A stretch of DNA of 64,000 nt from Selenomonadales bacterium (GTDB lineage Bacteria; Bacillota; UBA994). How positions within the stretch are numbered: the first letter of the stretch is position 1; every line of letters begins with the position of its first letter. The notes below the pieces were generated by a model. The model searched no databases, was not told the DNA's origin, and worked only from the letters and a program-made list of their open reading frames with translations. The stretch covers positions 6,281 through 70,280 of the forward strand of contig JAGXRZ010000001.1 of NCBI GenBank assembly GCA_018335585.1, in the 5' to 3' direction. Of the stretch, positions 43,910-61,398 are shown piece by piece. A program made the position numbers and the translations under genes.

Positions 43910-43925
43910 GAAAGGGGATATTCTT

Positions 43926-45365
43926 GTGCCAATAAACCCACAGATCTTTCGTGAATACGATATTCGCGGCAACGCCGAGCGGGACTTTGCTGAGCCCGAC
44001 CTGCGCCGCCTGACCCAGGCCATCGTTACATATTTTGAGTCCCACGGCAGGAGAGAGATGCTCGTCGCCCACGACTGCCGCCTGAGCTCGCCCCGCATCG
44101 TGGCTACCATTCTTGACGTGGCGCGTGAGCGCGGCATGCGGGTCGTTAACATCGGCATGGTTACCACGCCTGCCTTCTACTACGCCGCCAAGCACCTCGG
44201 CATTGACGCCGGGCTTATCGTCACCGCCAGCCATAACCCCCCGCCCGACAACGGCATGAAGGTGCTGCTTGGCCCCTCCACCATCCACGGGGCGGAGATA
44301 AAGCAGATAGAGCGAATTGCCGCCAGGCTCCAGCCGCCAGCCGCCAGCCACCAGCCGCCAACAGCCGGCAGCAACCACCTGCAAGCGACAAGCGACAAGC
44401 CACAAGCGACAATCCATTATGACATCCTCACCCCCTACGTCGCTATGTTGGCCGAAAAAATAAGGCTCGGCCCGCGCCGGCTTAAAGTGGTGGTCGACTG
44501 CGGCAACGGCACCGCCGGCCCGGTTACGGAACGTTTCTTAGAGGCACTAGGCATCGACTACATACCGCTCTATTTTACGCCCGACGGCACCTTCCCCAAC
44601 CACGAGGCCGACCCCACCAAGCTAAAGAACCTTGTGGACCTCCGCGCGCGCGTGCTCGCGGAGAAAGCAGACCTCGGCATCGGCTTTGACGGCGACGGCG
44701 ACCGCATTGGCGTGGTGGACGACCTCGGCAACGTCATTTGGGGCGATTTGCTTATGGCCCTCTTCTGGCGCGAGATACTGCCCAAGCACCCGGGCACCAC
44801 CTGCCTGGTGGAAGTAAAGTGCTCACAAGGCTTAGTGGACGAAATAGTGCGCCTCGGCGGCCGGCCCGAGTTCACCAAAACCGGGCACTCCCTAATCAAG
44901 GCGCGCATGCGCGAGCTTGGCGCCGTCTTCACCGGCGAAATGAGCGGACACATCTTCTTTGCGGACGAGTACTACGGCTTTGACGATGCTCTCTACGCCG
45001 CGGGTCGCTTGCTTAGGCTGCTTTCGCACAGCACTGACAAGCTTTCTTCGCTAATAGCCACGCTCCCCACCTACTACAGCACGCCCGAAACGCGCATCCC
45101 CTGCCCCGACGAGCTAAAGTTTGGCGTGGTCGACGAGCTTACGCAAGTCCTCGCCCGGCAATACGCTACCATTACCGTCGACGGCGTGCGCGTGCAGTTC
45201 CCGGAGGGTTGGGGATTGTTTAGAGCATCAAACACCGGGCCGGTGATTGTCACCCGCTGCGAAGGAAAAACTCCCGCGCTAAGGCAGGAGTATATGCGTA
45301 TACTTGATGAGGCATTAGCCAAGGTGCTGCCCGGCGTTGCGATACCTTGGGAAGTGGGAAACTAA
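43926..45365 (+). CDS. phosphomannomutase/phosphoglucomutase (alpha-D-phosphohexomutase)
   Basis: Active-site TASHNPPPDNGMK, Mg loop GFDGDGDR, GEMSGH, C-terminal RASNTGPVIVTRCEG. Confidence 0.85.
   Translation: MPINPQIFREYDIRGNAERDFAEPDLRRLTQAIVTYFESHGRREMLVAHDCRLSSPRIVATILDVARERGMRVVNIGMVTTPAFYYAAKHLGIDAGLIVTASHNPPPDNGMKVLLGPSTIHGAEIKQIERIAARLQPPAASHQPPTAGSNHLQATSDKPQATIHYDILTPYVAMLAEKIRLGPRRLKVVVDCGNGTAGPVTERFLEALGIDYIPLYFTPDGTFPNHEADPTKLKNLVDLRARVLAEKADLGIGFDGDGDRIGVVDDLGNVIWGDLLMALFWREILPKHPGTTCLVEVKCSQGLVDEIVRLGGRPEFTKTGHSLIKARMRELGAVFTGEMSGHIFFADEYYGFDDALYAAGRLLRLLSHSTDKLSSLIATLPTYYSTPETRIPCPDELKFGVVDELTQVLARQYATITVDGVRVQFPEGWGLFRASNTGPVIVTRCEGKTPALRQEYMRILDEALAKVLPGVAIPWEVGN
44322..44412. 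repeat. Heptamer arrays (GCCAGCC-type, then GCGACAA x4) lying in frame inside pmm
   Basis: gccaggctccagccgccagccgccagccaccagccgcc...caagcgacaagcgacaagccacaagcgacaa encodes ..ARLQPPAASHQPPTAGSNHLQATSDKPQAT.., in a variable loop. Confidence 0.8.
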
Positions 45366-45406
45366 CGATAGATGACCAGAGCCTGATTAGCCTTATTGCC
45401 AACCTG

Positions 45407-45435
45407 TTGACTCCAAGCTGCTGTATGGCTATACT
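45407..45435 (+). promoter_or_regulatory. sigma70-like promoter for the first island cassette
   Basis: TTGACT (45407-45412), 17-nt spacer, TATACT (45430-45435). Confidence 0.45.
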
Positions 45436-45483
45436 AAATCTATGTTTTGGAATCGCCACATCATCCGGTGGGGAGGAGTTAGC

Positions 45484-46737
45484 TTGTACATTACGCGGGC
45501 TGTAGAGCCCGTAATCAAGCGATTGGCGGGCATGTTTGGCGTTTTGCTGGTCACAGGGCCGCGACAGGTGGGCAAAACAACCATGCTGCAAAGCTTATCC
45601 GGCCCCGAACGCAAGTATGTCACGTTAGATGACCCCGATCTAAGGCGCTTGGCCAAGGCGGACCCAAGCCTCTTTCTGCAGCGTTTTACGCCTCCCGTCA
45701 TCATCGACGAAATTCAGTACGCCCCCGAACTGCTGCCTTACATCAAGATGCATGTAGATTCCACGCGGCGCACAGACGAGTTTTGGCTGACGGGCTCGCA
45801 AGTCTTTCAGACTATGCAGAACGTCAGCGAATCCCTAGCCGGGAGAGTAGGCATCGTCAATCTGCTTGGCTTGTCTACCCACGAGATACACGGCACTCAC
45901 TCTGAGCCATTTCTGCCTGTGCCCGAGAAGCTCTTGGCCAAAGCCGCGCCACAGCAAGCGAAACTCGGACTCCACGAGCTGTATGCCCGCATATTTAAGG
46001 GCAGCATGCCGGCCCTCTACGCCCATGCCATCGACCGCGAGGCCTACTACCGCGCTTACGTTAATACCTATCTGCAACGAGACATCCGCGACCTTACACA
46101 AGTAGCGGACGAAATGTCGTTCTTCAACTTTATGACGGTGGTTGCCGCCCGCACGGCCCGACCTATAGTCTACGAGGAAATCTCTAAGGATTGCGGCATT
46201 AGCGCGCCCACAGCCAAGAAGTGGCTCTCCATACTGGTTTCGTCCGGCCTTGTGGCGCTCGTGCAGCCCTATCACAACAACATCCTAAAGAGGGTCGTTA
46301 AGTCGCCGCTTCTACACTTTCTGGACACAGGGTTGTGTGCGTATCTACTTAAGTGGGCCAGCCCCGAAACGCTAGAGCGCGGCGCGATGTCCGGCGCCTT
46401 TTTTGAGAGCTTCGTGTTCGCGGAAATCTACAAGGGGTGGCTTAACGCCGGCAAGGAACCCCCTCTCTACTACTACCGCGACAAAGACCAAAAGGAAATC
46501 GACCTGCTTATCTACTGGGACGGCACCCTCTACCCCATCGAAATTAAAAAAACCGCGTCCCCCGGGCGAGATGCGGGTAAGCACTTCCATCTATTGCAGC
46601 CGCTCGCCGACTCTCTGCGAACCGAGGCGCACCCGCACCTTAAAGCAAGCATCGGCCCGGGCGCGGTTGTCTGCATGGCTAACAACCTCTTGCCCATAGA
46701 CAGACACGTCTGGGCTGTCCCGGCGTGGATGATCTGA
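45484..46737 (+). CDS. AAA+ ATPase of the AAA_14/DUF4143 type (island cassette 1)
   Basis: Walker A TGPRQVGKTT, Walker B VIIDEIQ. Start set to TTG 45484 behind GGGGAGGAG, giving (M)YITRAVEPV (track start 45442). Confidence 0.65.
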   Translation: MYITRAVEPVIKRLAGMFGVLLVTGPRQVGKTTMLQSLSGPERKYVTLDDPDLRRLAKADPSLFLQRFTPPVIIDEIQYAPELLPYIKMHVDSTRRTDEFWLTGSQVFQTMQNVSESLAGRVGIVNLLGLSTHEIHGTHSEPFLPVPEKLLAKAAPQQAKLGLHELYARIFKGSMPALYAHAIDREAYYRAYVNTYLQRDIRDLTQVADEMSFFNFMTVVAARTARPIVYEEISKDCGISAPTAKKWLSILVSSGLVALVQPYHNNILKRVVKSPLLHFLDTGLCAYLLKWASPETLERGAMSGAFFESFVFAEIYKGWLNAGKEPPLYYYRDKDQKEIDLLIYWDGTLYPIEIKKTASPGRDAGKHFHLLQPLADSLRTEAHPHLKASIGPGAVVCMANNLLPIDRHVWAVPAWMI

Positions 46738-46740
46738 AGT

Positions 46741-47189
46741 GGAGGATAACCAGAGCCTGATTGACCTTATTGCACTGATTAGGAGTTGACCTCAGGGGCC
46801 TGCATAGGGGCCTATATAAGCGTCTCTCCTTCTAATCAGGGTAATCAGTGAAATCAGGCTCTAAACTACGGGGGTTACTCAGGATAACCAGAGCCTGATT
46901 AGCCTTATTGCCCTGATTAGGAGTTGAGCACAGGGGCCTTCACCTCAGGGGCCTTCATAGGGGCCTATACAAGCGTCTCTCCTTCCAAATCAGGGTAATC
47001 AGTGAAATCAGGCTCTAAATTACCTGGGATACTCAGGATAACCAGAGCCTGATTAGCCTTATTGCCCTGATTAGGAGTTGACCTCAGGGGCTTTCACCTC
47101 AGGGGCCTTCATAGGGGCCTTTATAAGCGTCTCTCCTTCCAATCAGGGTAATCAGTGAAATCAGGCTCTAAACTACCGGGGATACTCAG
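46741..47189. repeat. Tandem island hairpin units (~153-bp period, ~2.9 copies) with no cargo between them
   Basis: Units at 46834-46918, 46988-47072 and 47141-47189 (truncated), plus a solitary right arm starting at 46744. Confidence 0.9.
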
Positions 47190-47245
47190 ATCCTAGCGCA
47201 GTTGCCTGCCTTGCTAGGGCCTATTTATCATGCTATTGTAGTATT

Positions 47246-47626
47246 GTGGAAGAGCATTGGGGGTGGCAATTTGCTATGTGGTCAACCCATATCCTAGACA
47301 GCGCGCGTGCCAAGAAAAAGCAAGCGCGGGAGCAACTTCGCGTTCGATTGCTAGACGCTGCCATGCAAGCCCTAGATAAGCTGTCCCTGTTGCTTCAGTT
47401 TGATAAAGCCTATGTATTTGGTTCCGTGGCAAGGCAGCAGGGGTTCGACGAGCTTTCGGATTTGGATATAGCCTTCGCAGGGCTGCGGGACGAAGATTAT
47501 TTTACCGCTGCGGCTTTTCTCTCAAGAGAAGTGGGCATAGACGAAGTGGATGTCGTGCAATTAGAGGGACATCGCCTGGCTAGTACAATAGTAAAGGAAG
47601 GGATACCGTGGAAAAGGAAAGGGTAG
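47246..47626 (+). CDS. nucleotidyltransferase-domain protein (MNT-type antitoxin)
   Basis: VFGSVARQ..SDLDIAF (GS..DxD Pol-beta NTase motif). Alternative ATG at 47276. Confidence 0.7.
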   Translation: MEEHWGWQFAMWSTHILDSARAKKKQAREQLRVRLLDAAMQALDKLSLLLQFDKAYVFGSVARQQGFDELSDLDIAFAGLRDEDYFTAAAFLSREVGIDEVDVVQLEGHRLASTIVKEGIPWKRKG

Positions 47627-48090
47627 CCTTACTACAGGCAGAACTGCAGTCACGCACCCAAGAGATTGAGAACATATACTTGAAGATTGACGAACGTAAA
47701 GGGCGGAGGGGCAAAATAGCCGTCGAAAGCCTTGCCTATCAGCTCCACAACCTGTACTGCGCATTTGAAGACCTCTTTAAGGCCGTATCTGTTGCCTTTG
47801 AAAACAACATCGACCACAAGTCGCGCTATCACACCGAACTGCTAAAAAGAATGACCTACACGATTGAAGGCGTAAGGCCCGCTCTCCTGACGCAGGATAG
47901 TTACATGTTGCTAGATAATCTGCGTGCGTTCAGGCATGTGTTCCGGCACGCCTATTCCTATGACCTAGATGAACGAAAGGTGCGAATTGTCTTAGAAGAT
48001 GTGGCCAAACTGCGGGCGTTGTACGCTAGGGATGTGCAGGCCTTTTTGCAGGGACTAGGGAGTCGCAATAGCAGTGACAACGGCAGGTAA
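47608..48090 (+). CDS. HEPN-like putative RNase toxin partner of MNT
   Basis: RHVFRH (Rx4H) motif in a helical 160-aa protein. GTG start overlaps the MNT gene by 19 nt. Confidence 0.5.
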   Translation: MEKERVALLQAELQSRTQEIENIYLKIDERKGRRGKIAVESLAYQLHNLYCAFEDLFKAVSVAFENNIDHKSRYHTELLKRMTYTIEGVRPALLTQDSYMLLDNLRAFRHVFRHAYSYDLDERKVRIVLEDVAKLRALYARDVQAFLQGLGSRNSSDNGR

Positions 48091-48201
48091 TCAGTGAAAT
48101 CAGGCTCTAAATTACCGGAGATCCTCAGGATAACCAGAGCCTGATTGACCTTACTGCCCTGATTAGGAGTTGAGCACAGGGGCCTTTGAATCAGGCTCTA
48201 A
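48088..48201. repeat. Island hairpin unit (left arm 5-prime truncated, starts in the HEPN stop codon)
   Basis: taatcagtgaaatcaggctctaaattaccggagatcctcaggataaccagagcctgattgaccttactgccctgattaggagttgagcacagggg.. Confidence 0.85.
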
Positions 48202-48261
48202 CACGCACTGGCACATGCTTTCGCTTATGTGTTAGCGATGAACCAAAATTGAGCACTAATC

Positions 48262-48336
48262 CTACCTCAAGACCGTTGGCGTGCGCGTGCACTTAAGGAA
48301 AAACTCCCGCCTAAGGCAGGAGTATAAGCGCATGTT
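48262..48336 (+). pseudogene. remnant of the pmm 3-prime end with an internal deletion
   Basis: accgttggcgtgcgcgtgca|cttaaggaaaaactcccgcctaaggcaggagtata matches pmm 45176-45196 joined to 45262-45298. Confidence 0.7.
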
Positions 48337-48427
48337 CAGCGTCGGTCGTTAGTCGCTGCGGCAAGCGGACAGCCTCCCAGCAGCTAGTGTAAAGCAAAAG
48401 GCTCCGTCCCCGGTGCTTCCCGGTGCT

Positions 48428-48646
48428 TTACCTCGCAATTAGCTCAGTTCTAGCGTAGCGCACACCCGTCTTACGGAGGACACCGGCATCTCTTAGCCTG
48501 TCAATGCGTCTTTTTACGTCATCGTCATCAAATCCGAGCTGTTTTTTCTTCACCTCAATGAGGATCTGGTCGATGGTGAACGGCTCACTCTTTGATAAAA
48601 CAATTTGCACAAGCTCGTATATGGGCGACTCTTTAACTGGAACCAT
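48428..48646 (-). CDS. small winged-helix-like protein coupled to the HD protein
   Basis: 72 aa. Its ATG follows the HD gene TGA directly (TGAATG). ..IDRLRDAGVLRKTG.. resembles a wHTH wing. Confidence 0.45.
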   Translation of the reverse strand: MVPVKESPIYELVQIVLSKSEPFTIDQILIEVKKKQLGFDDDDVKRRIDRLRDAGVLRKTGVRYARTELIAR

Positions 48647-50488
48647 TCATTCTCCTCCTTTTGCTCCATTATATCCGGGCACAAAGTGTTTTGACAGACC
48701 TTTTCCTAATTCTTCTCCTATTTGTTTTCTGAGTGAAGTGAGATTTTTATGTTCCCCGGTGAAGTACAGAAAAAACACTGGGAACAGAGACCAGTTCCTG
48801 TCCAGTTCTGCATTAATTGAAGACACCTCTGACAACGGCACCGCCTCTCCTTGGCAGTGCACATATGGGTCTAACACGGATGCCTTATTCTTGTTAAACT
48901 GCACTAGGTACTTACCTAGGACTGCGCGAGCAGCATGGTGGACAATCTCTTGGAACTTACTGCTATCGTCTACATCCATAAGTGCCTTCGCAGCCCCTAA
49001 GAAGAATCCCCCGCTTTTTACCTTCTTAGCCTGCTCAAAGGATGCCCTAAGCGGTTCCGGCAGCCACTCGCTGGCTGCGTTCATGGCCTGCACGCAGGCC
49101 TGGTCTATTTGACGAAAATCATTAGTCCGTTTGACAAGCGAGCTATAGCGTTTCTGATTAGATAGGAGTTCTTCTAGCTGGAACTTCAACTCGTCCTGAC
49201 CATTGTGGTACTCCTCGTAGTAATGGCGGCGCAGCACGGTAAGCATCCAAGCGTCGTCCCACTGCACAAGGTCATCAAAATACACCTTGTCAGCATCACG
49301 GTCACCATTAGCCACTGCTCGCCACAGCCCAGAAATATCCATGGGAAGCGCGCGGCCCTTTTCGGTTAGAACGGCACCTTGGTCCATTAAATACCTGGTC
49401 GCGAGGCCTGTTACAGTTTGTGTCAAGAGGGCGTCTGTCTTCCTTACTCTGTGGTGGAAGACTACATACTTGTAGAGAAACCACCGTAGCTTGAAAAAAT
49501 CCTCTATCGCGCTTAGCGCTCGAATGTCAGGGCAGAAGTAGAACCTTTCTTCAACTTGCATAAGACGCATAGATGTCAATAGGCGTTCATCGGCTGCCCT
49601 GCTCTTCATAAAGCCTGAATTCTCAAGGTCTCTTACAACATAGTCTAGTCTATCACCGTCCATGGGGCCGGAGATAATGCCATGTATATCAGCGCACAGA
49701 AAATCACCTTCGTTCTTCCCTGTTTCTTTTAGGATATCCAAACATAAACTATGTACGAGTTTATAGAGCATTTGGCAGCACGCTTCTTCGCGGTTAGGGT
49801 GCACATTTAGCTGAGCCTTGCGCGCTACATGCTCTAATAGCCTATCAGCAATCCTAATACCTAACGCCTCATGCAGTTCATCTGTGCCATTAACACCCAA
49901 GCTGTTGCTAAACTCCGCAACCCGCGTGGTCATCGTTGGGGCACACGACAGGCCGTGGTTAATGTCGTTTAGTGCCAACTCTGTGACGTGGCTGAATGGC
50001 GGGTGGCCGATATCATGTAACAGAGCTGCGCATCTGACAGCTTGGTATAGGATAACGTAAACCCAGACCTGCTCCTGCTTGAGCGAGGGCCGGTTAGTAA
50101 TGTACATCCTGTCACAATCGGCAATCACAGATGGGTGCCTCATAAGCTCTGTAATGTGGTCGCCTAACTTCGTCCGCCATATCTCCGCCTGCCCCGTACT
50201 AAGGTAGCCTCTTATTCGCTGCTCGACTTTACCAAGAAAATCATCCTTGGTCGTAGGTACTGCGTTCTCCACTGCATACCGCAAAATCCGGCTACAGAGG
50301 TGCATGGCCCCAATCGAGTGCGTAAAGCGAGAGGTTTTGTTCGCCGGATATGTTAAGTAGGCCGTAGAATTCTGTAAGACGGAATGCAGACGGTTAAAAG
50401 CCTGCGTCGATATTATGAGCTTCTCCATTTGACTCAACTGGACTGAGCCATGGACAGAGTCTGCTATCTGGAATATCTTGTCGTTCAT
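48647..50488 (-). CDS. HD-domain phosphohydrolase of the dGTPase/SAMHD1-like type
   Basis: FTHSIGAMH .. LLHDIGHPPFSH .. DGDRLDYVVRD gives the H..HD..D metal motif set. ATG 50488 behind GAAGGAG. AT-rich gene. Confidence 0.7.
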   Translation of the reverse strand: MNDKIFQIADSVHGSVQLSQMEKLIISTQAFNRLHSVLQNSTAYLTYPANKTSRFTHSIGAMHLCSRILRYAVENAVPTTKDDFLGKVEQRIRGYLSTGQAEIWRTKLGDHITELMRHPSVIADCDRMYITNRPSLKQEQVWVYVILYQAVRCAALLHDIGHPPFSHVTELALNDINHGLSCAPTMTTRVAEFSNSLGVNGTDELHEALGIRIADRLLEHVARKAQLNVHPNREEACCQMLYKLVHSLCLDILKETGKNEGDFLCADIHGIISGPMDGDRLDYVVRDLENSGFMKSRAADERLLTSMRLMQVEERFYFCPDIRALSAIEDFFKLRWFLYKYVVFHHRVRKTDALLTQTVTGLATRYLMDQGAVLTEKGRALPMDISGLWRAVANGDRDADKVYFDDLVQWDDAWMLTVLRRHYYEEYHNGQDELKFQLEELLSNQKRYSSLVKRTNDFRQIDQACVQAMNAASEWLPEPLRASFEQAKKVKSGGFFLGAAKALMDVDDSSKFQEIVHHAARAVLGKYLVQFNKNKASVLDPYVHCQGEAVPLSEVSSINAELDRNWSLFPVFFLYFTGEHKNLTSLRKQIGEELGKGLSKHFVPGYNGAKGGE

Positions 50489-50630
50489 ACTTACCGCTCC
50501 TTCGTGACCCATCGCCTACTACCGTGGCTGCTCAGGCCAAATGTAGACCTTTAAGGATACATTCTCCACAAACGAGAGCATTTCCTGCACCCCCGCGCGT
50601 GAAGCAAAAGCTCTGTCCCCAGTGCTTTCG

Positions 50631-50873
50631 TAATCAGGGTAATCAGTCAAATCAGGCTCTAAGCTTACGGGGGATACTCAGGATGACCAGAGCCTGATTA
50701 GCCTTATTGCCCTGATTGAGAGTTTGCCCTCAGGGGCCTTCACCTCAGGGGCCGTCATAGGGCCTTTATAAGCGTCTCTCCTTCCAATCAGGGTAATCAG
50801 TGAAATCAGGCTCTAAATTACCGGAGATCCTCAGGATAACCAGAGCCTGATTGACCTTATTGCGCTGATTAGG
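50631..50873. repeat. Two island hairpin units with linker
   Basis: Units at about 50631-50720 and 50788-50873. Preceded by a degenerate REP at 50598-50630. Confidence 0.9.
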
Positions 50874-50970
50874 GCATAGATTTAGAATCTGTGCGTCCCG
50901 GACAGCTGCACTTTTATGCTCTATTTTGATACACTTTGAAGCATAAACGTACAAACGCGAGGTGACTGGC

Positions 50971-51570
50971 ATGTCAGTTGATGAAAGAACGTCCATTTAC
51001 AGGCTCTTGAAAGATGGCAACGGTTTCGTGACAGCAACGCAAGTTACGGCAGCCGGAATTCCGCGACGCTGCCTAACCGCCATGAGTAGGTCTGGGTTAA
51101 TATGTAAGGTCGAACGCGGTATCTACGCCCTACCTGAGGTCTGGGAGGACGATCTGTTTTTCACTCAGTATCGCTTTAGCAGAGGCATTTTCTCGCACGA
51201 AACGGCATTGTCATTGCACTCACTAACAGACCGCACTCCCGTCAAGTATACCATGACCTTCCCCGCTGGGTACAATACTGTAAACGCTAGGCGCAAGGGT
51301 ATCATTGCTAAATGTGCGACAGCGGATACTTATGCATTAGGAGTGACAGAAGTGCCTTCTCCTAACGGAAACCCACTGCGGGCCTATGACATTGAACGTA
51401 CTCTGTGCGACATTGTAAAGACTAGGCATCAGGCTGACATTCAAGTCATCAACCAAGCCATGAAGGCCTATGCCAGCTCAAGGGATAAGGATATGGCTAA
51501 GCTCATTGACTATGCCAGAAGGCTACGTGTGACACCCAAGGTGCTGCACTACATGGAGGTGCTGCTATGA
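50971..51570 (+). CDS. AbiEi-family antitoxin (type IV TA)
   Basis: N-terminal ..VTATQVTAAGIPRRCLTAMSRSGLICKVERGIYALPE. ATGA overlap with AbiEii. ATG 50971 behind GAGGTGA. Confidence 0.7.
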   Translation: MSVDERTSIYRLLKDGNGFVTATQVTAAGIPRRCLTAMSRSGLICKVERGIYALPEVWEDDLFFTQYRFSRGIFSHETALSLHSLTDRTPVKYTMTFPAGYNTVNARRKGIIAKCATADTYALGVTEVPSPNGNPLRAYDIERTLCDIVKTRHQADIQVINQAMKAYASSRDKDMAKLIDYARRLRVTPKVLHYMEVLL

Positions 51571-52451
51571 CGACACGCAATCCTGCACAGCTTAAAGCCT
51601 TGTTCAAGAAAATGGCTACCGAAAAGAACTTATCCGCACAGCTGATCATGCAGAATTACATGATGGAACGGTTTCTAGAACGTCTTTCACTGTCTAATTA
51701 CAGGGAAAACTTCATCCTAAAGGGCGGCTTTCTTATCGCAGCCATTGTCGGGCTTGATTCTAGAGCTACGAGGGATCTCGACGCTACAGTTAGAGGTCTC
51801 ACGCTCACGCATGATTCTATTCGTTCGGTGTTTAGCAGCATATGTGGGGTTGACGCAGGGGACCAGGTCACATTTTCGGTTTCTAGAACAACGGATATCC
51901 GTGAAGCCGATGATTATCCCGGCATACGTGTTAGCCTGACAGCCAGCTTCCCACCCCTAATTGTCCCCATGTCCGTTGACGTAACTGCTGGCGATAAGAT
52001 TACGCCCCGCGCAATCGAATACACTTTTAGCCTTATGTTTGACGCCCGCTCTATATCTGTTCTAGCCTATAATCTAGAGACCATCTTAGCGGAAAAGCTC
52101 GAAACTATCTTGTCGAGAAACATCGCCAACACAAGGCCTAGGGATTTCTATGACGTATACATCCTCTATACGTTGTGTGGATCAGAGTGCAACCGGGCAG
52201 TCCTTCAAGCGGCCTTAGGAGAAACTGCCGTGAAGCGCGGCAGCGTAGCTGTGCTGAGGCAGTACGAGAGCATTGTCACTAACATCAAAAGCAGTTCAAG
52301 CCTGCGGGCTTTCTGGTCACGCTACCAGAAGGATTTCGACTATGCCAAAGACATCAGCTTTGACGACGCTTGTGATGCCATCCTGACGGTCCTAACTGAA
52401 GCATGTGCAGCCGGGCGGTCGCCTTTCCCTCCAAATCAGGGTAATCAGTGA
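51567..52451 (+). CDS. AbiEii/AbiGii nucleotidyltransferase toxin (DUF1814)
   Basis: ILKGGFLIAA..SRATRDLDATV NTase motif. The last 6 codons (PNQGNQ) and the stop come from the hairpin unit. Confidence 0.7.
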   Translation: MTTRNPAQLKALFKKMATEKNLSAQLIMQNYMMERFLERLSLSNYRENFILKGGFLIAAIVGLDSRATRDLDATVRGLTLTHDSIRSVFSSICGVDAGDQVTFSVSRTTDIREADDYPGIRVSLTASFPPLIVPMSVDVTAGDKITPRAIEYTFSLMFDARSISVLAYNLETILAEKLETILSRNIANTRPRDFYDVYILYTLCGSECNRAVLQAALGETAVKRGSVAVLRQYESIVTNIKSSSSLRAFWSRYQKDFDYAKDISFDDACDAILTVLTEACAAGRSPFPPNQGNQ

Positions 52452-52846
52452 AATCAGGCTCTAAACTACGGGGGTTACTCAGGATAACCAGAGCCTGATT
52501 AGCCTTATTGCCCTGATTAGGAGTTGACCTCAGGGGGCTTCACCTCAGGGGCCTTCATAGGGGCCTTCATAAGCGTCTCTCCTTCTAATCAGGGTAATCA
52601 GTGAAATCAGGCTCTAAACTACGGGGGTTACTCAGGATGACCAGAGCCTGATGGACCTTATTGCTCTGATTAAGGCGTGTAGGAGTGCTGTGAAGCAAAA
52701 AGCTCCGTCCCTTTTGCTTCCACCTCAGGGGCCTTCACAGGGGCCTGTATAAGCGTCTCTCCTTCCAATCAGGGTAATCAGTGAAATCAGGCTCTAAATT
52801 ACTGCGGATACTCAGGATAACCAGAGCCTGATTAGCCTTATTGCCC
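52434..52846. repeat. Three island hairpin units with an embedded REP hairpin (52691-52720)
   Basis: Units at about 52434-52520, 52586-52672 and 52768-52846. The last right arm is cut at ccttattgccc|acgag. Confidence 0.9.
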
Positions 52847-53056
52847 ACGAGCCACCTCAAAATGGGTGACAAACACCTCGCCGCGCAGGCGCGACACCAT
52901 TTCTTCCGGATGAGCCGTTTCGAAGAACAGCTCTACTGCTTCCCGTAGGTTGAACCTCGCTTGTTCCACTGTGTCCCCTTGGCTGGCGATATCGAGCTCT
53001 GGGCACAAGGCTACAAACCCACTACCTTCACGCTCAATCACAGCGGTAAATACCAT
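52838..53056 (-). CDS. hicB: HicB-family antitoxin, orphan copy (hicA replaced by repeat)
   Basis: MVFTAVIEREGSGFVALCPELDIASQGDTVEQARFNLREAVELFFE, near-identical to 56134..56364. Its stop codon is supplied by the repeat arm. Confidence 0.75.
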   Translation of the reverse strand: MVFTAVIEREGSGFVALCPELDIASQGDTVEQARFNLREAVELFFETAHPEEMVSRLRGEVFVTHFEVARGQ

Positions 53057-53093
53057 TGCGATCATCCTCCACTTCGAACAATCATGTGTCTAC

Positions 53094-53122
53094 AGTTTAC
53101 ATGATATGTCTAGCAGTGACAA
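53094..53122 (-). promoter_or_regulatory. reused promoter module, copy 1 (drives orphan hicB)
   Basis: Minus strand TTGTCA, 17 nt, TAAACT. Same module at 55792-55820 and 56402-56430. Confidence 0.45.
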
Positions 53123-53194
53123 CGGCACGCAAGACTGGCTCATCTTTGTCGTCCGCTGCGAAGAAAAAACTCCCGCGCTAAGGCAGGAGTATAC

Positions 53195-53740
53195 CTAGTC
53201 CAACTGCTCTGCAAAAATGTCGCCTAGGCAAACAGTAATCCCTGAAAGAACACAGGAGGAGATCTCCCCTGCTTCCCCTACTTCCTGATCTAGAACAAGC
53301 TTGCCGTCTTTTAGAGCAAAAACCTGCACCGACTTGTCATCCGGATCCACAATCCAGTATTCCCTGACCCCGCATCGTTCGTAGACTTTGAATTTCTTCC
53401 GCAAATCGTAATAGGCGGTGGCCGGAGAAAGAATTTCGACCACCAGATCAGGTGCTCCGTTGATCCGGGCCGGCTCGACTATTTCCATTCGCTCTTTGGA
53501 GATAAACAGGATGTCCGGTTGGAAGGTTTCTGTTTCACCTAGACAAACATCTACCGGAGCATCCAAGATCAGCCCCAGCTTTTGCTTAGTCACAAAGGAG
53601 CGCATCTGGAACCCTAGGCGCCCGGAAATAATCTGGTGATAAATAGACGGCGCAGGCGTCATAACAAGCTCTCCTCCGATTAACTGATACGGTGCACCTT
53701 CCGGGAGATTTTGATAGTCGGCGTGAGTATAGATCGTCAT
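53195..53740 (-). CDS. Uma2 family (DUF820) endonuclease
   Basis: ..YQLIGGELVMTPAP..PDILFISKER..APDLVVEILSP..REYWIVDP. Start moved to ATG 53740 behind AGAGGGGGG (the track N-terminus is repeat-derived). Confidence 0.7.
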   Translation of the reverse strand: MTIYTHADYQNLPEGAPYQLIGGELVMTPAPSIYHQIISGRLGFQMRSFVTKQKLGLILDAPVDVCLGETETFQPDILFISKERMEIVEPARINGAPDLVVEILSPATAYYDLRKKFKVYERCGVREYWIVDPDDKSVQVFALKDGKLVLDQEVGEAGEISSCVLSGITVCLGDIFAEQLD

Positions 53741-53852
53741 AATCACACCCCCCCTCTTAGCGCGGAGATTCCTTATGTCAATCGCCACGGTTTCGCTATC
53801 ATCATAGCACCGCAGACTGCTTCCCGCAACGGGAGTCTGGCTTCCACGTTCA

Positions 53853-54030
53853 CTCAGGATGACCAGAGCCTGATGGACCTTATTGCCCTGATTAGGAGTT
53901 GAGCACAGGGCCTTCATAGGGCCTTTTTACGCGCCTTTCCCTCTAAATCAGGGTAATCAGTGAAATCAGGCTCTAAATTACCGGGGATACTCAGGATGAC
54001 CAGAGCCTGATGGACCTTATTGCCCTGATT
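53853..54030. repeat. Solitary right arm plus one full island hairpin unit
   Basis: ctcaggatgaccagagcctgatggaccttattgccctgattaggagttga.. followed by the unit at about 53944-54030, then REP 54051-54080. Confidence 0.9.
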
Positions 54031-54580
54031 AAGACGTGTAGGAGTGCTGTGAAGCAAAAAGCTCCGTCCCTTTTGCTTCGCTAGCGGCTGGCGACTTACC
54101 TAGGACAAATCTGGCCCCTTCACGACGCAGCATTTGGTACGGGCTAATGCAGGCAATGCCTATCCCTTGGCATACGTTAGGGATCTTTATGCGCTTCAAG
54201 GAATTCGCCGGAATCTCGTGCGTGACAACGATGTGGCGCCCCGCTAATGCGTGTGCTATTAGGTAGTAATCGGCCACTTGCATAAAAGTGTTGATTGCAG
54301 CTGCTTCGTACTTCTGCCTCGTTACCCAGTCGGCAACTTTCCCAAGCTGCACAAAAACGTCAGCGTCAGTGTCACGGAAGAGGCTGCCACCCGTGTTCCG
54401 TACCCAATCCGACAGCTCATCAGCACCGCCAGCTATTTCGTCGGCAATTTTGTCTACACTCCAAACACGGCCCTTGGCATTGCTAACAAGCAGCCAATCC
54501 CAGAATGCAGGGCAAAAGTCTAATCCGTAGTGTAGGTTTTTAGCCTGAATGAACACATTGGTATCCAGCAAATAAGTCAT
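54029..54580 (-). CDS. DUF4411 PIN-like nuclease
   Basis: MTYLLDTNVFIQAKNLHYGLDFCPAFWDWL N-terminus. ATGA overlap with the upstream ImmA gene. The C-terminal tail is read through a REP hairpin. Confidence 0.65.
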   Translation of the reverse strand: MTYLLDTNVFIQAKNLHYGLDFCPAFWDWLLVSNAKGRVWSVDKIADEIAGGADELSDWVRNTGGSLFRDTDADVFVQLGKVADWVTRQKYEAAAINTFMQVADYYLIAHALAGRHIVVTHEIPANSLKRIKIPNVCQGIGIACISPYQMLRREGARFVLGKSPAASEAKGTELFASQHSYTS

Positions 54581-55776
54581 AGCATCACCCCTAATGCACG
54601 GGCAGCCTCATAGAAGGTAGCGGTTTTACGTATTCCCAACATGCGAAAAGCGTCGCGAAACAATGTCTGCCCTTCTAGGGTGCTAGAGATTACTGCCCGA
54701 GCAAAGAGCTTGCCCGTGCGCGCCGCAAGTGTGCGGTAAAAATCACCGCCGCTGCCACCACCACGATCGTAGCTTAAGATGCGTTCCGCTTCTGCATTGT
54801 AGGCCTGCCAGTAAGTATCCTGATCGATAGCGCCAATGTCCAGCAGTCGACGCAATATCACCAGCAGGCTCACCTTGAACACGCGGGCCAAATGCTGTAC
54901 CTCCTCTTCGAGCGGAAGATCTGGCCGACGTCGACCATGCAATTCTTCCACAGGCACGAGCACCTCTGCTGCTATCGCATTGCACCACCGCTCGATTGGC
55001 TGCGCGGGAACTGCTCCCGCAACCGGATCGGACACTCCACTTTCCCCAATCCACAAGTGTGCCAATTCATGGCATAGGGTAAACATTTGCGCAGACTTGC
55101 TGTCGGCTGCATTCAAAAAGATCACCGGAGCGAAGCGGTCAGCAAGGGCGAATCCACGGAACTCGGCAACATCAAGCTTGCGACGAGTGTTGCTCCCAAC
55201 TATTGAACTCGCCATAACAAGAATACCCACATCTTCGGCTTTTTGTTTAAGATAGCGTAACGCCTCCGCCCAAGTCGGAAGTCTCATTCTTGCTTCTGTA
55301 GAAAGCCCTAGCGTGCGCGCTATCGACCCCGCCACTGCGACAGGATCCTCTTGCGGGCTGACGCTCTGTATGAAGCTCAAAGGTGTTAAGCCATGTAAGT
55401 GCGCGTACTCGACAAACCAGTCTTGCCTCTGTTGGCACATGTACACCGTGTCAAGCAAGTTTAGGCTGGGGCGTGTGTCTATTCGACCGGCAAGTGTTCG
55501 CAAATCAGGTATCGGCAACTGCAGATCCGGAGGCACGGATAGGAACAAGTACCCAATCGGAAGATGCACAGCTTGCGCGTACTCCTCCAGCTGACGCAGA
55601 GTCGGCTGAACTTTGCCTAACTCCCAATCTCGCAGTTTTGGGAAGCGCCGGCTAAGGAACATGCTTTCTAGTCCCGCGCGTTCGCGTGCCCAACGCAGCA
55701 CCTCGGGCTTGACCGCGACCCTAGCCAATCCGACCACGTCCCTTTCTAGGTTAAATCTCGCTTGTTCCACTGCCAC
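54577..55776 (-). CDS. HTH (XRE-like) plus ImmA/IrrE-type zinc metallopeptidase
   Basis: HELAHLWIGE (HEXXH) with an N-terminal ..PEVLRWARERAGL.. HTH region. The first ~10 codons are a hicB fragment, so the true start is uncertain. Confidence 0.65.
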   Translation of the reverse strand: MAVEQARFNLERDVVGLARVAVKPEVLRWARERAGLESMFLSRRFPKLRDWELGKVQPTLRQLEEYAQAVHLPIGYLFLSVPPDLQLPIPDLRTLAGRIDTRPSLNLLDTVYMCQQRQDWFVEYAHLHGLTPLSFIQSVSPQEDPVAVAGSIARTLGLSTEARMRLPTWAEALRYLKQKAEDVGILVMASSIVGSNTRRKLDVAEFRGFALADRFAPVIFLNAADSKSAQMFTLCHELAHLWIGESGVSDPVAGAVPAQPIERWCNAIAAEVLVPVEELHGRRRPDLPLEEEVQHLARVFKVSLLVILRRLLDIGAIDQDTYWQAYNAEAERILSYDRGGGSGGDFYRTLAARTGKLFARAVISSTLEGQTLFRDAFRMLGIRKTATFYEAARALGVML

Positions 55777-55791
55777 TTCTCATGTGTCTAC

Positions 55792-55820
55792 AGTTTACAT
55801 GATATGCCTAGCAGTGACAA
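55792..55820 (-). promoter_or_regulatory. reused promoter module, copy 2 (drives ImmA/DUF4411)
   Basis: TTGTCA-17-TAAACT on the minus strand. Confidence 0.4.
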
Positions 55821-55937
55821 CGGCACGCAAGACTGGCTCAGCTTTGTCATCCGCTGCGAAGAAAAAACTCCTGCGCTAAGACAGGAGTGCTGTGAAGCAA
55901 AAAGCTCCGTCCCCGGTGCTTCCCCGGTGCTTCACGC

Positions 55938-56156
55938 CTACTCGAATAGTTCTCGGGACAATCCTGATTGCCTGATGATCGACTGAAGCGTCCCAATGCG
56001 AAGCTCATCGTGATCCGGAACGGGAACGGTTAAAGAACTTTGGAGAAGCTTCTTTTGCATGACAATATGGCTACCGCGCCGTCGTACTTCGACGAACCCA
56101 TGCGCAGAGAGAATCGTGCACACCTGTTTGCCACTAAGAACGCGCAGTTTGCCCAC
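55938..56156 (-). CDS. hicA: HicA-family mRNA interferase toxin
   Basis: (V)GKLRVLSGKQVCTILSAHGFVEVRRRGSHIVMQK. GTG 56156 preferred over the track TTG 56168. Confidence 0.7.
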   Translation of the reverse strand: MGKLRVLSGKQVCTILSAHGFVEVRRRGSHIVMQKKLLQSSLTVPVPDHDELRIGTLQSIIRQSGLSRELFE

Positions 56157-56364
56157 GAGACACCTCAAAATGGGTTACAAAAACCTCGCCGCGCAGGCGC
56201 GACACTATTTCTTCAGGATGAGCCGTCTCGAAGAACAGCTCTACTGCTTCCCGTAGGTTGAACCTCGCTTGTTCCACTGTGTCCCCCTGGCTGGCGATAT
56301 CGAGCTCTGGGCACAAGGCTACAAACCCACTACCTTCACGCTCAATCACAGCGGTAAATACCAT
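56134..56364 (-). CDS. hicB: HicB-family antitoxin
   Basis: MVFTAVIEREGSGFVALCPELDIASQG.. Overlaps hicA. GGAGGA RBS 8 nt upstream. Confidence 0.75.
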   Translation of the reverse strand: MVFTAVIEREGSGFVALCPELDIASQGDTVEQARFNLREAVELFFETAHPEEIVSRLRGEVFVTHFEVSRGQTARS

Positions 56365-56401
56365 TGCGATCATCCTCCACTTAGAACAATCCTGTGTCTA
56401 C

Positions 56402-56430
56402 AGTTTACATGATATGCCTAGCAGTGACAA
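56402..56430 (-). promoter_or_regulatory. reused promoter module, copy 3 (drives hicBA)
   Basis: TTGTCA-17-TAAACT on the minus strand. Confidence 0.45.
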
Positions 56431-56531
56431 CGGCACGCAAGACCGGCTCATCTTTGTCGTCCGCTGCGAAGAAAAAACTCCCGCGCTAAGGCAGGAGTGC
56501 TGTGAAGCAAAAAGCTCCGTCCCCGGTGCTT

Positions 56532-56728
56532 CTCAGGATGACCAGAGCCTGATTGACCTTATTGCCCTGATTAGGAGTTGAGCGCAGGGGACTTCACCTG
56601 AGGGGCCTTCATAGGGCCCTTTATAGGTGCCTTTCCCTCTAAATCAGGGTAATCAGTGAAATCAGGCTCTAAATTACCGGGACACTCAGGATAACCAGAG
56701 CCTGATTAGCCTTATTGCCCTGATTAGG
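56532..56728. repeat. Solitary right arm plus one full island hairpin unit
   Basis: Flanked by degenerate REP copies at 56502-56532 and 56742-56785. Confidence 0.9.
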
Positions 56729-56781
56729 GCGTGTAGGAGTGTTGTGAAGCAAAAGGCTCCGTCCCCGGTGCTTCCCGGTGC

Positions 56782-57432
56782 TTACTCCCTCTGACCCACC
56801 TGCTCCAAAAACTCCACAAAGGGGCCAAAACATTGCGGGCAGCGCTCTGCAATCTCTTTATACCCAACTCTAGACAACACCGCCGGTGCATCTACTGTCT
56901 CTTTATATCTTCGTCCCTCTTGCATGAAGAGCTCTTCTACCACTACCTTAGGGGGGCGGTCATGGTTCTGGTCTTCCACTGGCACAACCCAAGATCGCTT
57001 TAGCTGCTTCTTGCCCAAACGCCAAGCCAGAGCATCCTCGGCAGCTAGCACTAGCGCCTCTAAATCATGCTTGAGGCAGAAAACAAAAAACCGATCCAGA
57101 AGACGCATATCATCGACGTTGCTGTGCTGCAGTGCCCGCCTAAAAGCGCTGACAATGCCCTGCTGGAGTTGCGTCGTCGTTTCATGCTCAAGCCCTTTAT
57201 TCTTTGGGTACAGGTCTGGCAAGGCTACCACAACTGTATCAGCACTATGCCGCAGTATATTTGCGGCCCTCACCGGCACCTTAAAGACCATAGACTTCTT
57301 CTTATCCCCGTTTGGCGCCTCAAAAAACTCGATGGTGACCCCGCTCTGACGTTTACTTTCAATTACTGGGCTCAATAAAAGCTCTAACGCAGCTTTATCT
57401 GACGGTCCCTCAACATAAACAATTATCCTCAT
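56782..57432 (-). CDS. DUF4276-like (Toprim-related) protein
   Basis: MRIIVYVEGPSDKAALELLL.., ALPDLYP, KHDLEALVLA. ATGA overlap with the upstream ATPase. Confidence 0.55.
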   Translation of the reverse strand: MRIIVYVEGPSDKAALELLLSPVIESKRQSGVTIEFFEAPNGDKKKSMVFKVPVRAANILRHSADTVVVALPDLYPKNKGLEHETTTQLQQGIVSAFRRALQHSNVDDMRLLDRFFVFCLKHDLEALVLAAEDALAWRLGKKQLKRSWVVPVEDQNHDRPPKVVVEELFMQEGRRYKETVDAPAVLSRVGYKEIAERCPQCFGPFVEFLEQVGQRE

Positions 57433-58595
57433 GGTAGCCTCTCCAACTCGTCGCTACGATGCATTGCTTCAAGCTCATCTATGCCAAATTCCAGCAGGTT
57501 CGCCTTTAGCATCTGAGAGGTGCTCGGCTTAATAAATTGAGCCCCTCCGTCTACTTTGCGAAATACGGCAAGACGCTCTAAGTCAAAATGCACGAGGAAA
57601 TAGGAGGCATGGGTAGCCAAAAATATCTGCGTGCGATCACACGCCTTTTCGAAGAGCCCTGCGAGAAGCGGGAGGGTGCGGGGGTGGACGCCTTGGTCAG
57701 GCTCATCAATGCATATCAATGAGGGAGGTTTTGGTTGGACGCAAAGGACAATCCAACAGATTAGTCGTAATATCCCATCCGAGAGGTCCGCTAGACTTAG
57801 TTCTTGGTCAACGCCTTCTTCTTGCCAGAAGGCAATGACCTCGCCTCGTCCCCCGCGGGCCTTCACCGCTAGTCCCTTAAAGCCAGGCACAACCGCTCGC
57901 AGATGCAACTCCAGCTCTTCAAACGCCTCCCTGTGTTCTGTCATCAGATAATGCATCATAGAGCTCAGGTTGCCACCGTCTTCATGCAGGACCGGCTCCT
58001 GCTCGATGGGCACAGACTTGCGAATCTTCTCGTGATTAATGTTAAAGGAGCTATAGAAGCGCCATTCACGTATGTACTCCCTGAGTTGAAAGAGCGTCTT
58101 TTGGTTGGGGTTGGTCATGGTGCTGAGCGCCAGCTGGTTGGGACGCGACAGGGTGATCTCCTGCCGCTCTAACTTCTTGGACTCACCCTGAACTACGCCC
58201 ACCCGATCCTTAAAGTCCATAAAAACGTACGGCTTGTCATGCTGCGGGCCGAACGGTCTTCTGGATACCACCTTCTCGAAAGAGACCCGTGTGCGGCCGA
58301 TAGGGCCCGTTAACTCCCCTTGATAGCAGATAGGAACGGGCTGCCCACTGTCTATTTCTAGGCTCCACGAAAAGCGTTCGGGGCCCGGCATATGGAATAT
58401 CTGCTGCCCGACTGAGCCCGCTATAATCTCCGGCGGAATCTCCTGGTACACACTATTGCGCAGAAACTTCAGGAACTCAAAGAAGCTCGATTTGCCCGCG
58501 CCATTTGCACCAACAAGTATCTCCAGCGGCCCGAGCGGTGCCACCAAATCCTTAAAAGGTCGGTAGCCCATAATCTGCACGGAGTTCAACTTCAT
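57429..58595 (-). CDS. ABC-type/AAA_21-like ATPase
   Basis: Walker A VGANGAGKSS, Walker B LICIDEPDQGVHP, H-loop LATHASY. Start set to ATG 58595 (MKLNSVQIMGYRPF). Confidence 0.7.
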   Translation of the reverse strand: MKLNSVQIMGYRPFKDLVAPLGPLEILVGANGAGKSSFFEFLKFLRNSVYQEIPPEIIAGSVGQQIFHMPGPERFSWSLEIDSGQPVPICYQGELTGPIGRTRVSFEKVVSRRPFGPQHDKPYVFMDFKDRVGVVQGESKKLERQEITLSRPNQLALSTMTNPNQKTLFQLREYIREWRFYSSFNINHEKIRKSVPIEQEPVLHEDGGNLSSMMHYLMTEHREAFEELELHLRAVVPGFKGLAVKARGGRGEVIAFWQEEGVDQELSLADLSDGILRLICWIVLCVQPKPPSLICIDEPDQGVHPRTLPLLAGLFEKACDRTQIFLATHASYFLVHFDLERLAVFRKVDGGAQFIKPSTSQMLKANLLEFGIDELEAMHRSDELERLP

Positions 58596-58660
58596 CCGCA
58601 TATGCGTCCACCCCGTTTCACAACTTTGCTCCAGTATAGCATGCCGGCGCGGCCCTGTGG

Positions 58661-58813
58661 GCATCTCTCTTTCCAATCAGGGTAATCAGTGAAATCAGGC
58701 TCTAAACTACGGGGGTTCCTCAGGATAACCAGAGCCTGATTGACCTTATTGCCCTGATTAGGGCATGTAGGAGTGCTGTGAAGCAAAAAGCTCCGTCCCT
58801 TTTGCTTCGCATT
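58661..58813. repeat. Terminal island hairpin unit plus REP hairpin (right island boundary)
   Basis: Unit 58675-58762, then gtaggagtgctgtgaagcaaaaagctccgtcccttttgcttc (REP 58782-58813). Confidence 0.9.
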
Positions 58814-58829
58814 TCTTAACAAGCGCATG

Positions 58830-59081
58830 CTAGCACCCCTCGCGCAAAGACCAATCCATGAACTGCTGAAACTGCTCGTCCTCAGCTAGGTCTAAGAAGC
58901 GCTGCCTTTGTTCCGCACTGAGAGCCGCGAGGAAGCGGTGGTAGTATTGTGATTTACGCCAACTCACTCCGTATCGGCGTACACCGCGTGCTCTAATGGC
59001 CCGCACGCGTAGCCAGCAACCCAGGATAACTGCCCCTGCCCCCGCTGCTATCACCAAGTACCACAATAAGTTGGCGTACAC
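58830..59081 (-). CDS. small single-TM protein, paralog of 43364..43645
   Basis: (V)YANLLWYLVIAAGAGAVILGCWLR..SWRKSQYY..LSAEQRQRF..MDWSLREGC. GTG start. Confidence 0.5.
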   Translation of the reverse strand: MYANLLWYLVIAAGAGAVILGCWLRVRAIRARGVRRYGVSWRKSQYYHRFLAALSAEQRQRFLDLAEDEQFQQFMDWSLREGC

Positions 59082-61390: not shown

Positions 61391-61398
61391 CTAATGAA

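Follow-up and report, generated by a model that had tools for sequence, protein, structure and literature searches.

In a 64,000-nucleotide stretch of a Selenomonadales bacterium genome (contig JAGXRZ010000001.1, positions 6,281 to 70,280; hereafter the window), the 13.4-kb segment that separates the phosphomannomutase/phosphoglucomutase gene pmm from a gene for an 83-aa membrane protein is a strain-variable island of toxin-antitoxin (TA) and anti-phage genes, grown on the 3' side of pmm. The array looks like a gene-cassette exchange platform without a nearby integrase: its cassettes are joined by a sequence-constrained, lineage-specific 85-nt hairpin, and at least one deletion was mediated by two copies of this hairpin. 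As to what the hairpins are, we lean tentatively towards joints of trans-mobilised, inverted-repeat-bounded cassettes that are either empty or gene-carrying.

An earlier note, made from the letters of the window alone, had described a repeat-delimited set of self-contained TA/defence cassettes between the pmm stop codon (45365) and a small membrane-protein gene (58830), and this set is real. Both borders hold: pmm encodes four PGM/PMM domains (Pfam PGM_PMM I-IV), and the right-hand gene a protein with one predicted transmembrane (TM) helix. The gene identities proposed for the cassettes were all borne out by Pfam (with matches to MNT, HepT, HicA and DUF4411) and PADLOC (with matches to PDC-S01, AbiE, PDC-S03, HEC-01 and an RmrA/CapP-like protease), the mixed orientation of the cassettes follows from the strands of their open reading frames (ORFs), and the repeat clusters start where they had been placed (Table 1 gives the mapped starts). 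Known and candidate defence and TA genes are clustered here and vary in presence and absence among strains, as expected of a defence/TA island. Several cassettes had also been called more AT-rich than their surroundings, which is correct for the left flank (56-62% GC against 49-54%) but not for the right-hand glycan genes, also at ~51%. The orphan hicB copy is a 96% duplicate of 56149-56448 (repeat families D6, D8 and D11).

The unit that joins the cassettes is an 85-nt imperfect palindrome made of a left (L) arm AATCAGGGTAATCAGTGAAATCAGGCTCT, a 27-nt loop (AAAYTAC…ACTCAGGATRACC) and a right (R) arm AGAGCCTGATTRRCCTTATTGCCCTGATT. In the window, 12 L arms and 15 R arms were mapped between 45378 and 58759, all on the plus strand, and together they form 11 complete L-loop-R hairpins; a search with the R-arm 24-mer at up to 3 mismatches likewise returned 15 matches, all on the plus strand and all within 45376-58752, and none in 100 shuffles. 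Each arm consists of three direct 9-nt boxes of the AATCAGG type, which look like binding sites for a protein, and the middle boxes of the two arms are unpaired, leaving a conserved internal bubble in the stem. Folded as single-stranded DNA, the unit reaches -24.9 kcal/mol (z = -5.7), the head and tail arms being complementary at 24/29 bases, plus the tips GGATAACC/GGTTACTC. When 33 distinct complete units from 10 loci are compared, conservation is 90-100% in the arms and in the loop bases CAGGATRACC, lower in the 5' half of the loop, and only 30-70% in the fillers to either side, which indicates that the ends are constrained and the interiors interchangeable. Between 1 and 4.5 tandem units, with 40-70-nt fillers between them, occupy each gap.

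Partial copies of the unit break near the centre of the loop. R arms without an upstream L arm start at, or within 2 nt of, ^AGGATRACC, and the sequences that adjoin them on the left are unrelated to one another (the end of pmm, the end of the DUF4143 gene, the Y hairpin described below, and the flank of L004; sequences other than the window are referred to by L numbers). One L arm without an R arm terminates in …ACTCAG, and head and tail would therefore overlap by the central AG. Complete heads and tails are found on three gene-carrying segments, namely those of HD, AbiE and HEC-01, and segments bounded by inverted repeats and lacking a transposase are thus present in both empty (X, X', Y) and gene-carrying versions. 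Truncated arms at 45378 and 48080 were considered as crossover points in the outer box and rejected, as relatives show small secondary deletions; the head-only copy at 45371, for instance, reflects a secondary deletion of ~320 nt, since the corresponding junction in L032 runs on into 2.5 further units.

The L arm with the first loop bases (e.g. 52434-52462 and 48080-48108) holds stop codons in all three plus-strand frames. The HEPN and AbiEii ORFs run into an L arm and end there, the AbiEii stop codon falling within it, and the DUF4411 ORF passes the Y hairpin into an R arm. The peptide of the unit's open minus-strand frame, compared with a protein database, matched only the ORF itself and one 41-aa relative.

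Cassette content differs among relatives, and comparison of the pmm locus recovered five alleles that share the hairpin and carry different cassette sets. Allele A (the window and L011) holds nine cassettes. Allele B (L012) has flanks 99.95% identical to those of the window, but in it DUF4143 leads straight into the last unit and then the right flank; 11.8 kb are missing, and unit 46834 is joined to unit 58675 by a crossover within 43 nt of perfect identity common to both units (the L arm and 14 loop bases). Recombination between direct copies thus removes whole blocks. Allele C (L030 and L007, pmm 96% identical at the aa level) comprises a small ORF, DUF4143, MNT-HEPN, Uma2, DUF4411-ImmA and a different AbiE pair, whereas alleles D (L031, pmm 88% aa, with an IS21 insertion) and E (L032, pmm 87% aa) contain other cassettes and orders, the unit always lying on the pmm strand. 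In L032, DUF4143 sits between an L arm with 10 loop bases and AGGATAACC plus an R arm. Fillers as well as cassettes are swapped between strains: from the R arm at 47044 to the L arm at 47141, the place of the window's 68-nt filler X is taken in L007 by the 40-nt X', the flanks being 97% identical. Furthermore, cassettes shared by the window and L031/L032 are 96.7-97.5% identical while the neighbouring core DNA is at 88-95%, which suggests, only modestly, that cassettes move between lineages.

The unit is confined to few places. Within the window it had been claimed to occur in the array only, and an nhmmer profile search (--max) found no copy in the other ~50 kb nor in ~45 kb of additional flank. 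Likewise, in the sequence inspected it is not spread in the manner of a REPIN or BIME: it is absent from ~60 inspected housekeeping intergenic regions, in which dispersed repeats of the same genome are present, and no scattering was seen in the ~150 kb inspected. It recurs at two further loci, one downstream of rpsT (L001, L006) and one next to a Fic gene (L004, L008), in each case adjoining TA genes and varying in copy number between strains. The three known loci (pmm, rpsT and Fic) are a lower bound, as the metagenome scan missed the motif-bearing contig L030. A permissive Rfam search of 44500-59500 gave no match, and neither did BLAST of a unit cluster against plasmid and phage collections. 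Scans of viral contigs with both arms yielded one match, discarded as chance in a collagen-like GNQ repeat gene, and L002, L005, L009 and L010, which came up in scans of genomes and metagenomes, were discarded as chance similarities within coding sequence.

Among species-representative genomes, the repeat was found in one only, labelled Bellilinea sp. OMB012, where it lies on two short contigs (L001 and L003). That label is doubtful because L003 is 100% identical to L032 13924-16210, part of the pmm-locus array, and the short contigs were probably mis-binned or wrongly labelled. The host is a Firmicutes/NPL-UPA2-like lineage, and proteins closely related to the window's RF1 carry the names Firmicutes/Bacillota or candidate division NPL-UPA2. 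The window sequence recurs in several ENA, JGI and Logan assemblies, and no array follows pmm in GCA_009773495.1, a relative whose pmm is 71% identical.

At the rpsT locus of L001 (2490-2530, 220-260), a second copy of the 40-nt rpsT terminator stands at the distal edge of an inserted block composed of hairpin units, Phd-Uma2 and a nucleotidyltransferase gene, and L006 is a deleted version without the second terminator copy. At the Fic locus, L008 761-3206 is a 2.4-kb insert (MNT, a shikimate-kinase-like gene and DUF4143) that is missing from L004 (~760-790) and is flanked by a 25-nt direct repeat, CCCCGGGCCCGCCCCGTGAAAGG, which precedes MNT genes.

The joints that we tentatively prefer would be formed as follows. 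The 85-nt hairpin would be the place where the tail of one small non-autonomous element, CTCYYTYY-AATCAGGGTAATCAGTGAAATCAGGCTCT-AAAYTAC…ACTC, meets the head of the next, AGGATRACC-AGAGCCTGATTRRCCTTATTGCCCTGATT-AGG. Such an element would be empty (X, X' or Y fillers only, ~125-155 nt in total) or would carry one or two genes (HD; AbiEi/Eii; HEC-01). An enzyme encoded elsewhere in the genome, possibly an end-targeting transposase or else a site-specific recombinase working at the centre of the joint, would insert new copies beside resident ones, and the elements would pass through a circular or otherwise excised form. Either enzyme would produce a pile-up at few loci, a single orientation and direct head-tail abutment, and the topology of the array matches that expected if circular copies insert next to resident ones. 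The remaining cassettes, DUF4143, MNT-HEPN, Uma2, DUF4411-ImmA and HicAB, probably entered by another route, through recombination anchored in pmm and closed by an illegitimate join on the other side.

The earlier note had offered two analogies, a sedentary integron and a pile-up of mini-elements bounded by terminal inverted repeats (TIRs). The second fits best, as complete hairpins can be read as a tail abutting a head, and it fits HD, AbiE and HEC-01 with their full heads and tails, though not the five other cassettes, which are not cleanly bounded. Miniature inverted-repeat transposable elements (MITEs) with cargo and mobile insertion cassettes (MICs), such as MIC231 of the Bacillus cereus group, are transposase-less, TIR-bounded and mobilised in trans; here, too, transposase-less segments lie within ~40-nt terminal inverted repeats and are empty or carry passenger genes. 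By this comparison the array would work most like MITE/MIC-type cassettes stacked head-to-tail. It differs from them in its single orientation and in occupying few loci instead of being scattered; no parent insertion sequence (IS) with matching ends was found, and no target-site duplication was seen. Transposases of the IS30, IS3 and IS256 types, which target element ends, make head-to-tail IS dimers and circle junctions, with which the unit shares an abutted right-end/left-end junction, a 2-nt shared centre and tandem copies in the same orientation. This analogy is structural only, as no such transposase is present and the ends match no IS compared.

The absence of an integrase or transposase gene from the window, reported in the earlier note, was upheld by domain scans and by reading of the genes, with no such domain in the window ORFs scanned or read. 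PF00589 and other recombinase profiles matched neither the window ORFs nor a further 10 to 18 kb of flank across the five alleles. The only recombinase-type genes met are an unrelated IS21 (L031) and an rve fragment (L007), and no cognate IS with matching ends was among them; IS21 was considered as the unit's parent and rejected because its ends are unrelated. No RAYT gene was seen, and the unit itself is known from three loci only, the collection scans being non-exhaustive. DUF4143, which sits between L and R arms in L032 and L030, was considered as the element's own enzyme and rejected since its paralogs (window 14008-15468; L031, L032, L008) have no units beside them. The second DUF4143/AAA_14 paralog of the window (14008-15468) lies outside the array, and further copies are found upstream of pmm (L031 1163-2197, L032 1245-2528). 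Units are likewise missing beside the Uma2 copy of a further locus (L037), so Uma2 is not always tied to the repeat.

Several observations weigh against trans-mobilised cassettes. DUF4143, MNT-HEPN, Uma2, DUF4411-ImmA and HicAB lack a clean head and tail; tail borders vary (+0, +10 or +20 loop bases), two head borders retain more of the loop, and an orthologous head border differs between L004 and L008. No target-site duplications were seen at the ends of the series. No recombinase or transposase able to act on the unit was found in the window and the 10 to 18 kb of flanks read, nor among the annotated genes around six other loci, and the ~150 kb of this lineage's sequence contain no candidate enzyme. 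The copy census is incomplete by at least the one contig missed in the metagenome scan, cassettes are also gained or lost without hairpin units, as in the 2.4-kb insert of L008, and RecA-type recombination between repeats accounts equally well for both the deletion allele and the filler swap.

In a possible but more doubtful explanation, the unit is a passive repeat, namely a lineage-specific REP/BIME/NIME-like structural or regulatory element (e.g. a protein-binding site, a transcript insulator or an mRNA stabiliser) that multiplied within the island through unequal crossing-over and provides portable homology only, turnover being left to ordinary homologous or illegitimate recombination. In Neisseria, cassettes between conserved flanks of intergenic mosaic elements and minimal mobile elements are exchanged by homologous recombination, much as would be the case here. 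A deletion junction in 43 nt of perfect identity is what such recombination would leave, variants of arm, loop and bubble are combined in many ways, as expected from gene conversion, and the heterogeneous borders, missing target-site duplications and missing enzyme fit as well. Moreover, the genome is rich in other short repeats (housekeeping intergenic regions contain six copies of Y and three of a GTAG…CTAC doublet), cassette indels occur away from units too, and the mosaicism of pmm shows that homologous recombination is active at the locus. On the other hand, the unit is absent from the ~60 housekeeping intergenic regions inspected, where true dispersed repeats occur, and all three of its unlinked loci have TA genes alongside; the point at which several unrelated sequences meet the unit is one and the same base, and invariant ends with interchangeable interiors (X, X', Y, genes) are typical of ends recognised by an enzyme. 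REPINs are inverted REP doublets that fold into a hairpin (PMC3116915), and the unit resembles REPINs and BIMEs in forming long imperfect hairpins from inverted doublets within mosaic unit/linker arrays. Its arms, however, are three direct 9-mers in place of a GTAG-flanked palindrome, and it is absent from the intergenic regions just mentioned; by sequence, it does not appear to be a typical REPIN.

Integrons are not known from this lineage. TA cassettes are typical of sedentary chromosomal integrons. The array is like these (e.g. the Vibrio VCR arrays) in being a long series of small, self-contained cassettes of strain-variable content, in many cases TA or defence modules, with near-identical imperfect hairpins of ~60-130 nt in one orientation. 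Taken as a whole, its mode of working resembles that of a sedentary integron or of a mosaic repeat region of the Neisseria type, with cassettes exchanged between conserved joints. Taken literally, the hairpins would be attC sites of a cluster of attC sites without an integron integrase (CALIN), the IntI-type integrase being encoded elsewhere or since lost, which we consider highly improbable. The unit does have an attC-like length (85 nt), an unpaired bubble at its centre, one arm with conserved mismatches and a variable 27-nt loop; all sites have a single orientation, and divergence starts right after the R-arm …CCCTGATTAGG, at the stem base, where the attC R' box would be. CALINs without a nearby intI are, furthermore, common (PMC4889954). 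Nonetheless, no intI gene or recognisable pseudogene lies within 10 to 18 kb in any allele, the stem base is TTCTAAT/ATTAGGA (5/7 positions of the consensus) and not GTTRRRY/RYYYAAC, up to 4.5 tandem units with short conserved fillers stand between cassettes, cassette borders are non-uniform, partial sites break in the loop and not at the stem base, and the cassettes, in mixed orientation, bring their own promoters and terminators. For these reasons the array is not an integron in the defined sense (PMC4889954), and the strict form of the integron analogy has to be given up.

A broader version seems less far-fetched but still unlikely to us: the hairpin might be the recombination site of a previously undescribed integron-like cassette-capture system in a Firmicutes/NPL-UPA2-like lineage, in which a different enzyme would recognise the 3 x 9-nt boxes on each arm, make its exchange at the AG in the middle of the 27-nt core, and collect TA and anti-phage cassettes at the docking sites pmm, rpsT and Fic.

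Sequences derived from pmm itself also occur in the island. The boundaries at 53066-53194 and 55777-55937 had been described as carrying a "pmm scar" and promoter in place of the unit, and each does contain a 48-nt copy of pmm 45247-45294 with a promoter-like site. These copies are better described as an intrinsic terminator on the minus strand (ACTCCTGCCTTAGCGCGGGAGT followed by a T-run, as predicted from sequence), which is also present inside the 3' coding region of pmm, where it would stop antisense transcription from convergent downstream genes. Their interpretation as recombination scars on the right of minus-strand cassettes was considered and revised, since they are terminators that serve their right-hand neighbours. 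Each such minus-strand cassette has its copy on the 3' (left) side: for Uma2 and HicAB it follows immediately downstream, for the HD operon it comes several hundred bases further on, and for HEC-01 it lies past the intervening units. The HD cassette also includes a Y hairpin and, at 48303-48323, a diverged terminator of the pmm type; to the right of DUF4411-ImmA lie a promoter-like site (55792-55820), a pmm-type terminator (55867-55888) and a Y hairpin, and the same three elements recur to the right of HicAB (56402-56430, 56477-56498 and Y). Promoter-like sites for the left-hand cassette adjoin the terminator copies, and with promoter-like and terminator-like sites of its own each cassette appears to be a self-contained transcription unit.

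The gene pmm is a recombination mosaic: between the window and L030-L033, blocks of 100% identity stand beside blocks of 71-87%, and the C-terminal tail exists in three or more versions. To the right of a 290-nt insert, alleles C and D retain 11 nt of the other pmm tail (GGGAAACTAAC), which, by sequence, is consistent with a pmm-homology-anchored replacement closed by an illegitimate join. Through recombination of this kind, the tail of pmm has been replaced and DNA from the neighbourhood imported. A different origin would be tandem accretion of integrase-borne islands at an attB in the 3' end of pmm, the pmm fragments being attL/attR leftovers and the hairpins incidental. Such accretion is known from the CIME/ICESt elements at fda of Streptococcus thermophilus, where integrative elements accumulate in tandem at a gene's 3' end, and the growth of the island at the 3' end of one gene with internal direct repeats from that gene is alike. 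The array contains four or five direct copies of the 30-48-nt pmm 3' fragment, L033 and the window diverge inside this fragment (45279/45280), pmm has several alternative tails, and the 40-nt rpsT terminator copy flanks the insert at the rpsT locus. We nevertheless give this origin only the slimmest chance. No integrase is present, the gene-derived repeats double as minus-strand terminators 3' of minus-strand cassettes, a function that alone can explain their retention, three of the copies belong to one duplicated hicB-promoter module (families D6/D8/D12), most lack the pmm tail that an attR would keep, and in L031 a DUF4143 3' fragment holds the same positional role.

Table 1. Mapped features of the pmm-linked array and its surroundings (positions in the window).
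Feature	Position	Strand	Remarks
Y hairpin outside the array, six copies	12285-12322, 19431-19468, 20491-20528, 23578-23615, 43764-43801, 43874-43911		
pmm (phosphomannomutase/phosphoglucomutase)	43926-45365	+	conserved left anchor, mosaic gene; Pfam
Intrinsic-terminator-like hairpin and T-run in pmm 3' coding region	45270-45291	-	source of the "pmm scar" copies
Head-only copy, AGATGACC and R arm bases 1-23	45371-45400	+	directly 3' of the pmm stop
DUF4143/AAA_14 ATPase cassette (PADLOC PDC-S01)	45404-46742	+	gene 45442/45484-46737; 97.2% identical to L032
Unit cluster 1: head, R-X-L x3, tail-only copy (…ACTCAG) last	46743-47189	+	
MNT and HEPN/HepT-like cassette	47190-48079	+	MNT 47246-47626, HEPN 47608-48090; L007 and L031 have the same borders
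Hairpin unit	48080-48164	+	L arm with 5-nt deletion relative to L031
HD-domain cassette	48165-50631	-	HD gene 48647-50512, 72-aa ORF 48428-48646; between R arm and L arm
Unit cluster, two hairpins	50632-50870	+	
AbiEi and AbiEii cassette	50871-52433	+	AbiEi 50962-51570, AbiEii 51567-52451; between R arm and L arm
Unit cluster, three hairpins	52434-52846	+	last R arm truncated at base 24
Orphan hicB copy	52838-53194	-	hicB 52838-53065, promoter-like site 53094-53122, pmm-type terminator 53169-53190
Uma2-family nuclease cassette (PADLOC PDC-S03)	53195-53855	-	ORF reads to 53917; block 96.7-97.5% identical in L031/L032
Head-only copy and one hairpin	53856-54030	+	
DUF4411 PIN-like and ImmA/IrrE-type protease	54029-55937	-	DUF4411 54029-54580, protease 54577-55776; Pfam/PADLOC
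HicA and HicB	55938-56534	-	HicA 55938-56168, HicB 56134-56373; Pfam
Head-only copy and one hairpin	56535-56725	+	
DUF4276 and AAA_21 ATPase (PADLOC HEC-01 B and A)	56726-58674	-	DUF4276 56782-57432, ATPase 57429-58676; between R arm plus Y and L arm
Last hairpin unit and Y hairpin	58675-58808	+	right-hand partner of the allele B 11.8-kb deletion
83-aa single-TM protein gene	58830-59081	-	right border; paralog of 43364-43813 ORF, 53% aa identity

Other short repeats accompany the array. The Y hairpin (GAAGCAAAAAGCTCCGTCCCTTTTGCTTC; 30-38 nt, GAAGCAAAAGGGACGGAGCTTTTTGCTTC) occurs in both orientations at gene ends in the housekeeping part of the window (Table 1) and in seven copies within the array, and looks like a genome-wide REP-like or terminator-like element. 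A 52-nt doublet of two small hairpins with GTAG/CTAC flanks, GTAGGGACGTGC…GCACGTCCCTAC (13776-13830, 22691-22748 and 23614-23648, with a further copy in L037), is a REPIN-like family distinct from the array unit. GCGACAA-type tandem heptamers are found inside pmm (44341-44414) and in intergenic regions (8468-8541 and 25842-25960); those in pmm encode a low-complexity insert (…ATSDKPQAT…) whose length and sequence vary by allele, with identity down to 30-60%.

The surroundings are variable as well. The glycan genes to the right of the array are ugd/uxs/GT2/GT4 in the window (59187-64000) and rmlA/C/B/D with the rve fragment in L007 (1-5045), the right flank of allele C thus carrying rmlDBCA in place of ugd/uxs, and this strain variability places the array at the edge of a variable surface-polysaccharide locus. 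The paralogous small single-TM genes flank pmm and the array in direct orientation, and a third relative lies directly after pmm in alleles C and D (L030 11437-11607). Paralogs with a four-helix bundle (24706-25113, 27452-27892 and 28734-29177) stand among the genes for GlpX, transaldolase, CoA transferase and BKACE, and their orthologues in L031 and L032 match Pfam 23S_rRNA_IVP/bAvd.

No bacterial system for stockpiling and shuffling small gene cassettes is well understood apart from integrons, which have recently been linked to anti-phage defence. If trans-mobilised cassettes do meet at these hairpins, the array would represent a second, unrelated route to array building, so that cassette platforms would have evolved more than once, and there would be a new recombination site and a new enzyme to look for. 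If the repeat provides homology only, the locus would still be a clear natural example of defence-island turnover. In either case, several alleles from the same communities allow the process to be compared read by read.

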